A stretch of 64,000 nucleotides of DNA, from NCBI GenBank assembly GCA_016187335.1, contig JACPJW010000001.1:128001-192000 (forward strand). Direction: 5' to 3'. Both the position numbers and the translations under genes were made by a program. Shown piece after piece: positions 33,285 to 34,637 of the stretch (positions are counted from its first letter, which is position 1; every line of letters begins with the position of its first letter). The notes below the pieces were generated by a model. The model was not told the DNA's origin. It did not search any database and saw only the letters and a list, made by a program, of their open reading frames with translations. This stretch comes from Candidatus Aenigmatarchaeota archaeon (GTDB taxonomy: Archaea; Aenigmatarchaeota; Aenigmatarchaeia; GW2011-AR5).

Positions 33285-33383
33285 GATAATCACACAAATT
33301 GTTAAAGCGGAAAAGACGGCTCTGCGTTCTTTCGCTTAATGACTTTTATTTGCTTGAGCATTAAAACTTAAAAGCACATGTTT

Positions 33384-33411
33384 TTGATAGAACTTTTTTT
33401 GAAAAAGTTCT
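33384..33411 (+). repeat. Family A mini-hairpin abutting tRNA-Leu G1
   Basis: TTGAT+agaacttttt/ttg/aaaaagttct. Confidence 0.85.
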
Positions 33412-33673
33412 GCGGGGGTTCCCGAGAAGCCCTTTTTAGAAAAAAGCGCTTGCGGAAAAACTAAGGAGGGTTAGGGAATGGCCAAAGGGGCAGGACGGTT
33501 GCCGTGAAAATGGTGCCGGGCTTCACTTAAGGCATGGCTTAAGTTTCGAGCTAAGACAGCTTAGCTATGAAAGAAATCCTGTGGCTTAGTGCCTTCGAGA
33601 GTTCGAATGCGCCCTTTCTTGGAAAGAAAGCGTGCACGGAAAGAAACGGGTGCCGAAAATCTCTTCCCCCGCA
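33412..33673 (+). tRNA. tRNA-Leu(TAA) with four introns (15/16, 30/31, 37/38, 59/60)
   Basis: Exons 33412-33426, 33479-33494, 33525-33531, 33576-33607 and 33660-33673 join into an 84-nt type II cloverleaf; each junction folds as a BHB or BHB-like motif. Confidence 0.9.
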
Positions 33674-33737
33674 TTTTTCTGCCTTGTAGAAAGCTTTAAA
33701 TTTCTATAATGCATCCTTACTTTAAAGTAGTGAATGT

Positions 33738-34637
33738 ATGACTCTAATTTCATTCTTAAGAGCAGGACCTGGAGTTGGTGTGGGACACTCTGATCGCCAG
33801 CTATTGTACACCTCGCGTGCTAGGCCTTCGGAAACTTATCAGGCAAAGGAAAGAAAAGTCATAATGCTAGGCAGTGAGCATTGTGTTGGATACGCAACCG
33901 GAATTGACGTAGGATACGCCCGGAAAATAGTTCATTCGGCAAAACGTGCTGTGGAGTCTCGTTTGCGGGACGGACCTGTCACCTTCAAGGAAGTGCGGGG
34001 TATGGTGACAAAGGCGTATGATGAGGTTCGTTCCGGGAAAGTTCCTAAGAATTTTGATGTGGATCTTATTATTGCAGGTCTTGATGAAGACCCTCCAAAT
34101 TTTGTTACTCATGAAACCAGTTTTATATCTCCCAGACCTCCGCCCAGGGATTTTAGCATAGTAACTTATGACAAAAGCGGAGAGCTAGTTTATCACACGT
34201 ATACAGCTTCAATAGGCTCCGCATCCGACACAGCTGACAGATTTATCAATGAGTTCCTGGAAACCGTGAACCCAAGGCAGCCTTATCTCGGGCTTGTAAG
34301 ATGCGCCCAAGTAGTGATGGAAGCGCACAGAATAGCCGAGAAAAGACATAGGGGAAGCGTAGGAGAAAGAGATCAGTTGGTATGGATAAACGATAATCCA
34401 ACATTTCAAGAAACAAGCGAGAAAGAAACGTCCTTACTCGGTAGCAGCCTGCGCTTGAAGGCACAAGGCCTGCTGACTGGTGAAGTGGTTAATGAGGTCT
34501 TTAAAGTAATTTTGAATCGTGATAATTCCGAAAGGGATGCAGCTACCAGAGTAAGAGATAAGTTAAGAGAAATTCTTTTATCGGATAGTGACGGTGCAAG
34601 ACGTCTCCTCGATTACGTTCTTTTTGGAAGAAATTAA
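33738..34637 (+). CDS. Proteasome beta-like Ntn-hydrolase-fold protein
   Basis: M-T1-LI start, SDRQ, K near position 39, LIIAGLD, SIGSAS, GSVG. Confidence 0.65.
   Translation: MTLISFLRAGPGVGVGHSDRQLLYTSRARPSETYQAKERKVIMLGSEHCVGYATGIDVGYARKIVHSAKRAVESRLRDGPVTFKEVRGMVTKAYDEVRSGKVPKNFDVDLIIAGLDEDPPNFVTHETSFISPRPPPRDFSIVTYDKSGELVYHTYTASIGSASDTADRFINEFLETVNPRQPYLGLVRCAQVVMEAHRIAEKRHRGSVGERDQLVWINDNPTFQETSEKETSLLGSSLRLKAQGLLTGEVVNEVFKVILNRDNSERDAATRVRDKLREILLSDSDGARRLLDYVLFGRN

Follow-up and report, generated by a model that had tools for sequence, protein, structure and literature searches.

A tRNA-Leu(UAA) gene interrupted by four BHB-type introns in a Candidatus Aenigmatarchaeota genome

The gene described here has the L18e-L13-S9 ribosomal protein genes on one side and rpoD on the other, both in the opposite orientation, and is part of the 64,000-nt stretch of DNA that was analyzed as a whole and is referred to below as the window. 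The corresponding genome measures 1.01 Mb in two contigs, has a GC content of 47%, and is 90.8% complete. Its closest relatives by RpoD are Candidatus Aenigmatarchaeota MAGs, and the sequencing runs listed as containing the locus are all groundwater DNA metagenomes. A reading of the sequence identified at the locus five exon pieces and four insertions with exact coordinates (Table 1). Once the introns are removed, exons of 15, 16, 7, 32, and 14 nt give an 84-nt tRNA-Leu(UAA), which ARAGORN reports as tRNA-Leu(taa). Its acceptor stem of 7 bp is perfect, its anticodon stem has 5 bp, the variable arm is long, the T-loop reads GTTCGAATC, and the discriminator is A73. In standard tRNA numbering, the insertion sites are 15/16, 30/31, 37/38, and 59/60. 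The intron coordinates and the 84-nt cloverleaf had been proposed in a first-pass annotation made from the sequence alone and proved to be exact. The five exons follow one another in order on a single strand over 262 nt, and the gene is thus neither trans-spliced nor permuted. CCA is not encoded at the 3' end of exon 5, and A73 is directly followed in the sequence by a run of five Ts, which we take, from general knowledge of archaeal terminators, to be a likely transcription stop signal. Intron 1 contains a hairpin module that is common to other tRNA introns.

Two further features were observed in the immediate surroundings. A perfect palindrome, GAACTTTTTTTGAAAAAGTTC, preceded by TTTTGATA, adjoins the 5' end of the tRNA gene; further copies of this palindrome are found at several loci in the focal genome and its relatives, and the hairpin-plus-ATCAAAA unit of this segment also occurs inside introns of other tRNA genes. 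A 299-aa ORF for which no Pfam match was obtained separates the tRNA gene from rpoD and runs on the strand opposite to that of the ribosomal protein and polymerase genes on either side.

Table 1. Coordinates of the tRNA-Leu(UAA) gene, its surroundings, and related loci (plain numbers are window positions; other coordinates are given with genome and contig)
Feature	Position	Strand	Description
tRNA-Leu(UAA) gene	33412-33673	+	five exons, four introns
Exon 1	33412-33426	+	positions 1-15: acceptor 5' strand, U8-U9, D-stem 5' strand, A14 G15
Intron 1	33427-33478	+	52 nt, site 15/16, relaxed BHB
Exon 2	33479-33494	+	D-loop, D-stem 3' strand, G26, anticodon stem 27-30
Intron 2	33495-33524	+	30 nt, site 30/31, relaxed BHB
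Exon 3	33525-33531	+	7-nt micro-exon ACTTAAG: A31, C32, U33, anticodon UAA (34-36), G37
Intron 3	33532-33575	+	44 nt, canonical site 37/38
Second CTTAAG	33538-33543		within intron 3
Exon 4	33576-33607	+	A38, anticodon stem 3' strand, long variable arm, T-stem 5' strand, T-loop to A59
Intron 4	33608-33659	+	52 nt, site 59/60 in T-loop, strict hBHBh'
Exon 5	33660-33673	+	U60, T-stem 3' strand, acceptor 3' strand, discriminator A73
Five-T run	33674-33678	+	directly after A73
Palindrome	33382-33410		adjoins tRNA 5' end
299-aa ORF	33738-34637	+	between tRNA gene and rpoD
EndA	G000:C2:410508-411113	-	202-aa ORF
tRNA-Leu(CAA)	G000:C2:464460-464733	+	paralog outside the window
Arg-like tRNA locus	G000:C2:455397-455696		
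Arg-like T-loop intron	G000:C2:455600-455645	+	site 59/60
Lys(CTT)	G000:C1:53735-53937		initially called Leu taa
Ala(TGC)	G000:C2:236555-236857		initially called with four gaps
Val(TAC)-like	G000:C2:256576-256821		initially called with four gaps
EndA-like ORF	G030:C2:64018-64830		family f7
EndA-like ORF	G040:C50:15353-16243		family f7
EndA-like ORF	G036:C16:11658-12071		family f7

The splicing motifs were compared with the BHB geometry as published. In this geometry, the central helix joins the four bases that precede the final two of the exon to the four that precede the final two of the intron, and the predicted cuts fall within the two 3-nt bulges of each BHB. Intron 4 corresponds to a strict hBHBh' motif: its UUCG/CGAA central helix is complete (4/4), both bulges are AAU, the outer helix is the 5-bp T-stem, and the inner helix comprises 6 bp. 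[quoted passage not shown] The outer helix of intron 2 has 3 bp and makes use of C32-U34, and that of intron 3, whose central helix is CUUA/AAAG (3/4), is the anticodon stem. This geometry agrees with the first-pass annotation, which had attributed a perfect BHB to intron 4 and one mismatch next to the 5' bulge to each of introns 1 to 3. At the ortholog junctions, at least three of four central pairs together with a flanking helix were found in 21 of 23 cases (91%), as compared to 2.8% of control junctions shifted by 3 to 12 nt; a bare 3/4 central helix, which is seen at 17% of shifted junctions, is by itself a permissive criterion. Many relatives have a perfect 4/4 central helix at 37/38, either CUUA/UAAG or CUUA/UGAG, and the 30/31 inner helix is preserved via compensatory changes in G001 and G015. 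Intron 4 was the only one for which unconstrained folding yielded a textbook BHB. In introns 1 to 3, the BHB conformer differs from the minimum-energy fold: folding of intron 1 favors a register that pairs U8-C12 with GGGAA, and folding of intron 3 favors a 6-bp CUUAAG/CUUAAG hairpin that competes with the 3/4 central helix. The intronic CTTAAG in question, located 5 to 6 nt into the 37/38 intron, is the palindromic complement of anticodon loop positions C32-G37. It is conserved in at least eight genomes, and the orthologs that carry it in intron 3 are L005, L004, L006, L007, L008, L009, and L010.

Bases C32-U34 are used twice, namely, in the outer helix of intron 2 and as three of the four exon bases in the central helix of intron 3, so that the competition of both motifs for C32-T34, already noted from the sequence, is borne out. 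In addition, the outer helix of intron 3 increases from 1 to 6 bp only after the removal of intron 2. Since C32-U34 are shared and the anticodon stem is complete only once intron 2 has left, excision of the 30/31 intron before the 37/38 intron is the likely order, although intron 3 keeps a relaxed HBh' motif even in the primary transcript. It has been reported for Thermoproteales that the excision of one intron can depend on the prior removal of another (PMC8450103).

Approximately 27 Leu(UAA) orthologs of the order were compared. In G001, which belongs to the same genus, the exons are identical at 84 of 84 positions, and exons 1 and 2 as well as exons 4 and 5 are fused exactly at the predicted junctions. 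This genome retains the 30/31 and 37/38 introns (29 and 79 nt) with diverged sequences, and its 30/31 intron combines a 4/4 central helix with an 8-bp inner helix that has undergone compensatory changes. For every one of the four sites there are orthologs that lack the intron precisely: sites 15/16 and 59/60 are empty in G001 and in the majority of the orthologs, 30/31 is empty in G016 and likewise in most others (it is occupied in G001, G015, G019, and G035), and 37/38 is empty in G030 and G021. Most genomes have a single intron at or near the canonical 37/38 site, G030 has none, two are found in G001, G014, G016, G019, G020, G006, G035, and G021, and three in G027 and G005. Of the orthologs compared, only that of G015, a genome from another genus, shares all four introns with the focal gene. 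One of the two-intron genes, L196 of G021, has no 37/38 intron and one near 29/30; its congener L193 (G005) has both, so that a further genus provides a pair differing in intron presence. The 7-nt micro-exon is also present in G001, G015, G019, and G035, and the spliced tRNA is identical to its orthologs at 73 to 84 of the 84 positions. Metagenomic contigs from other community members contain exon 4 followed without interruption by exon 5-like sequence, and GCAGG followed without interruption by ACTTAAG. At the level of comparative sequence analysis, the gene is confirmed as a real tRNA-Leu(UAA) gene with four predicted introns, every junction of which is backed by relatives with an empty site.

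The stems of the spliced tRNA are also conserved. When 12 spliced orthologs were aligned, all of 20 pairs proved intact, a count that covers the acceptor, D, anticodon, and T stems with three variable-arm pair rows set aside. Double compensatory changes occur across exons that are separated by introns, namely, 1/5, 1/2, and 4/5: G3:C70 became C3:G70 in the four-intron gene of G015, and other double changes are C2:G71 to U:A, G7:C66 to A:U, C10:G25 to U:A, and those at two T-stem pairs. An intact second Leu-TAA gene, the search for which had been suggested in the first-pass annotation, was not found in the 90.8% complete genome, where no second Leu(UAA) locus exceeded the class II background using two Leu(UAA) references and no contiguous UAA anticodon arm was detected elsewhere. 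The long open frames of the genome contain 1316 TTA codons. UUA codons are decoded in archaea by tRNA-Leu(UAA), and the gene, which judging from its sequence would be functional and single-copy, should therefore be essential, unless there is a second copy in the missing 9% of the genome, which is possible.

The unspliced gene escapes common detection tools. ARAGORN predicted no genes in the window, and Rfam returned no tRNA match at the locus at gathering or permissive thresholds; it scores an uninterrupted ortholog at 56.7 bits. The expectation that standard annotation would overlook this gene is thus correct for both tools, which are blind to the unspliced locus, and their misses are expected failures that provide no evidence against the gene. 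Each of 68 reference tRNAs, most of them uninterrupted and all drawn from two intron-poor genomes of the order to which the focal genome belongs, was aligned to the entire focal genome by a dynamic program that permits long jumps and ignores splicing motifs. In this spliced alignment, the focal locus scored 106, the top value in the genome and far above chance, as compared to a reversed-genome maximum of 37, and was aligned with four gaps of approximately 50, 30, 44, and 52 nt. Junction refinement, in which BHB geometry and an ARAGORN-valid product were required, led to the very junctions that had been read from the sequence.

The same mature tRNA may also be obtained by parsing the locus in another way, either with the second CTTAAG as the micro-exon or with the junctions of introns 1 to 3 shifted by 1 to 2 bases. 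The spliced alignment itself picked the second CTTAAG, which leaves the mature sequence identical, intron 2 can slide by one base without altering the product, and only 3/4 central pairs are formed in introns 1 to 3. However, when the second CTTAAG is taken as the micro-exon, the central helix of intron 2 is left with 1/4 pairs and its inner helix is absent, so that this candidate failed the BHB test and was rejected. Furthermore, GCAGGACTTAAG is contiguous in orthologs without intron 2, the second CTTAAG is absent from the short-intron orthologs of G031 and G037, and the 15/16 and 59/60 junctions are set by the empty sites of G001. A different parse of this kind is very improbable.

The four-intron reading also has to be weighed against the idea that the locus is a decaying or nonfunctional tRNA gene that has accumulated insertions and from which no working tRNA is made. 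Three of the four motifs are relaxed and lie off the minimum-energy fold, as might be expected in this case, but the exons are fully identical to those of the congener, whereas the introns common to both genomes now differ in sequence as well as length. Every stem pair is intact across 12 genomes, the gene is the sole Leu(UAA) gene found in a genome that uses TTA codons, and nearly all tRNA genes of the focal genome are built alike; we consider decay very improbable. An assembly or binning artefact, in which repeat-like intron modules were stitched into a tRNA gene, can be given next to no credence. Logan contigs from several runs do end inside repeated intron modules, but a contig from an independent 2017 groundwater metagenome study matches positions 33372-33900 with no differences, which argues that the locus is no assembly artefact. 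Overlapping contigs from other runs also show no differences at the locus, and G015 has an identical four-intron architecture.

The focal genome encodes the enzymes that such a gene would need. EndA is a 202-aa protein (PF01974, 97.4 bits; PF02778, 49.9 bits), and no second EndA subunit was found in the focal genome by tblastn. Among solved structures, it is matched best by the homotetrameric enzyme of M. jannaschii (1a79) and the alpha subunit of N. equitans (3iey_A). An insertion in EndA, VQLKKGPKSAKEH, aligns with a loop of 3iey_A and is absent in 1a79. Across 36 relatives, EndA is 62 to 90% identical, and this loop is invariant throughout the order. The corresponding loop has been termed L3, and L3-bearing alpha4 enzymes in DPANN have been tied to more tRNA gene disruption (PMC5829648). 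The catalytic Tyr and His are conserved, and the catalytic Lys156 of M. jannaschii aligns to Ala, with Arg or Lys one position later (orthologs L155-L184); the motif reads HNIRA[R/K]ML throughout the order versus SVRKKLL in M. jannaschii. The alignment suggests that the catalytic basic group may be shifted by one residue. The RtcB ligase is also encoded (PF01139, 528 bits). A look at the EndA subtype, as had been recommended at the outset, therefore revealed a single alpha-type enzyme with a Nanoarchaeum-type loop insertion and RtcB alongside.

The Leu(UAA) gene is one extreme within a genome-wide and lineage-wide pattern. According to an automated and approximate census, the focal genome has around 45 tRNA loci with some 100 gaps of at least 9 nt, corresponding, once refined, to approximately 2.1 per gene, and no more than two or three tRNA genes lack an interruption; this census is noisy, as 6 of the 45 loci failed ARAGORN after refinement. 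Rfam finds 14 of the approximately 45 loci. Among 40 relatives, between 5 and 27 tRNAs per genome were detectable by Rfam in the focal family versus 31 to 38 in two other families, and these low counts throughout the family indicate that heavy interruption is a lineage trait. A tRNA-Leu(CAA) paralog located outside the window has introns at the identical four positions (52, 39, 44, and 51 nt) and a 7-nt micro-exon, ACTCAAG. Its spliced 86-nt tRNA is ARAGORN-valid, and its 37/38 motif has only 2/4 central pairs. Three other calls of the census were revised. A second "Leu taa" call was rejected by sequence reading, since it corresponds to Lys(CTT) with two introns, and in both an Ala(TGC) gene and a Val(TAC)-like gene that had been called with four gaps, two adjacent gaps form one intron, leaving three introns in each.

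Clear similarities exist between introns of different tRNA genes. Over 46 nt, intron 4 shows 98% identity to the 59/60 intron of an Arg-like tRNA gene in the same genome; its identity to the Leu(CAA) counterpart is 92%, but that to the orthologous intron of G015 is only 57%. From these identities, intron 4 looks like a recent product of copying or gene conversion from other, unrelated tRNA genes within the genome. Intron 1 has 81% identity to its Leu(CAA) counterpart and the same two ends as the 118-nt intron 1 of G015, which is internally expanded; it thus occurs in another genus but not in the congener G001. The cores of introns 1 and 4 match at least 10 tRNA loci and three sites outside the census. 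It is conceivable, although we put this forward only tentatively, that the hairpin together with GCG..CGGAAA is a mobile element and that the locus, G001, and the paralogs have been caught in the process of intron turnover. Introns 1 and 4, as well as introns of at least 10 other tRNA genes, would have this module as their body. The module, which also occurs outside tRNA genes, would bring its own inner BHB helix and could therefore be accommodated at many tRNA positions, and intron 4 would be a very recent copy, given the 98% identity to the Arg-like copy and the empty site within the genus. Such a mobile module, if it exists, would be a natural system for learning how BHB introns arise and are precisely lost. 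Intron transposition in Thermoproteales (Fujishima et al. 2010, as covered in PMC4033280) resembles the cross-gene similarity of intron 4. Gene conversion between T-loops would account for this intron as well as transposition.

We propose that the gene would be transcribed into a precursor of approximately 262 nt with introns in the D-loop (15/16), the anticodon stem (30/31), the anticodon loop (37/38), and the T-loop (59/60). The alpha-type EndA with its Nanoarchaeum-like loop would cut at the two bulges of each motif, intron 4 being a textbook substrate and introns 1 to 3 relaxed ones. The 30/31 intron would likely be removed ahead of the 37/38 intron, and RtcB would ligate the five exons into an 84-nt class II tRNA. 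The introns themselves belong to a turnover-prone family. There is a high probability that this is a single-copy functional tRNA-Leu(UAA) gene with four BHB introns that are spliced by EndA and joined by RtcB. A tRNA-Leu(UAA) with four BHB-type introns and a 7-nt micro-exon is what the first-pass annotation had put forward, and the cloverleaf, the empty sites in orthologs, the covariation within the stems, and the genes for EndA and RtcB all sustain it. Judging from the gene sequence, UUA translation in this organism appears to need eight correct endonuclease cuts and four ligations per transcript.

The maximal number of introns per tRNA gene has been stated to be three (PMC4033280, PMC8450103), and the four introns described here exceed this limit, which is given in reviews and in the tRNAscan-SE 2.0 paper. 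Up to five in a single tRNA gene, and approximately 2.2 intervening sequences per gene, have been reported for Asgard archaea in an October 2026 preprint (10.64898/2026.10.13.758758). The initial estimate that four is at or beyond the upper range is consequently right for the peer-reviewed maximum of three, whereas the preprint has five. The closest parallels are found in Thermoproteales, for which short BHB or relaxed introns at canonical and noncanonical positions are described (Sugahara et al. 2008, reviewed in PMC4033280; PMC8450103), as are close-set introns with a dependence in their removal and similar introns across different tRNA genes. However, these sources put the maximum for a Thermoproteales gene at three introns, and the EndA of these hosts is a heterotetrameric (alpha-beta)2 enzyme with a crenarchaeal loop, whereas the present gene has four introns in a DPANN host with one alpha-type EndA gene. 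The value of approximately 2.1 introns per gene, derived from a rough census, is above the 1.54 cited for Pyrobaculum calidifontis, and the intron load per gene is comparable to that of the record holders.

Another parallel is that of the Asgard archaea, in which more than 90% of the tRNA genes are likewise interrupted and many D-arm insertions are missed by annotation (PMC11291895; 10.64898/2026.10.13.758758); in Atabeyarchaeia and Freyarchaeia, this fraction amounts to 92 to 95% (PMC11291895). These archaea belong to another phylum and their EndA has loop L1, whereas the present host is a DPANN archaeon with a genome of approximately 1 Mb and an L3-like loop. As far as its sequence tells, EndA resembles the alpha subunit of N. 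equitans in being a single alpha-type subunit with an aligned insertion. The split and tri-split tRNAs of Nanoarchaeum equitans and Caldivirga maquilingensis also involve exon pieces that may be only a few nucleotides long, BHB-like motifs, and EndA plus a ligase, but these pieces are encoded at separate loci and joined in trans, whereas the exons reported here are colinear within 262 nt. In the papers searched, no account of the tRNA introns of Aenigmatarchaeota was found. By analogy with these systems, the gene would be a four-intron tRNA gene of the same mechanism class in a lineage without earlier description, and extreme tRNA gene fragmentation would extend to the DPANN lineage Aenigmatarchaeota with a single alpha-type endonuclease. 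Because ARAGORN and Rfam miss such genes, genomes of this group look tRNA-deficient, and conclusions on completeness and codon capacity will be wrong. The orthologs, with zero to four introns at fixed sites and one congener with two clean empty sites, provide material for studies of intron gain, precise loss, and splicing order.

Finally, a second type of EndA-like ORF was noticed in the course of the comparison of relatives. Genomes of the intron-poor family f7 carry it (Table 1), where it is longer than EndA (398 to 485 aa) and 31 to 37% identical; no copy was detected in the focal family, which is rich in introns.
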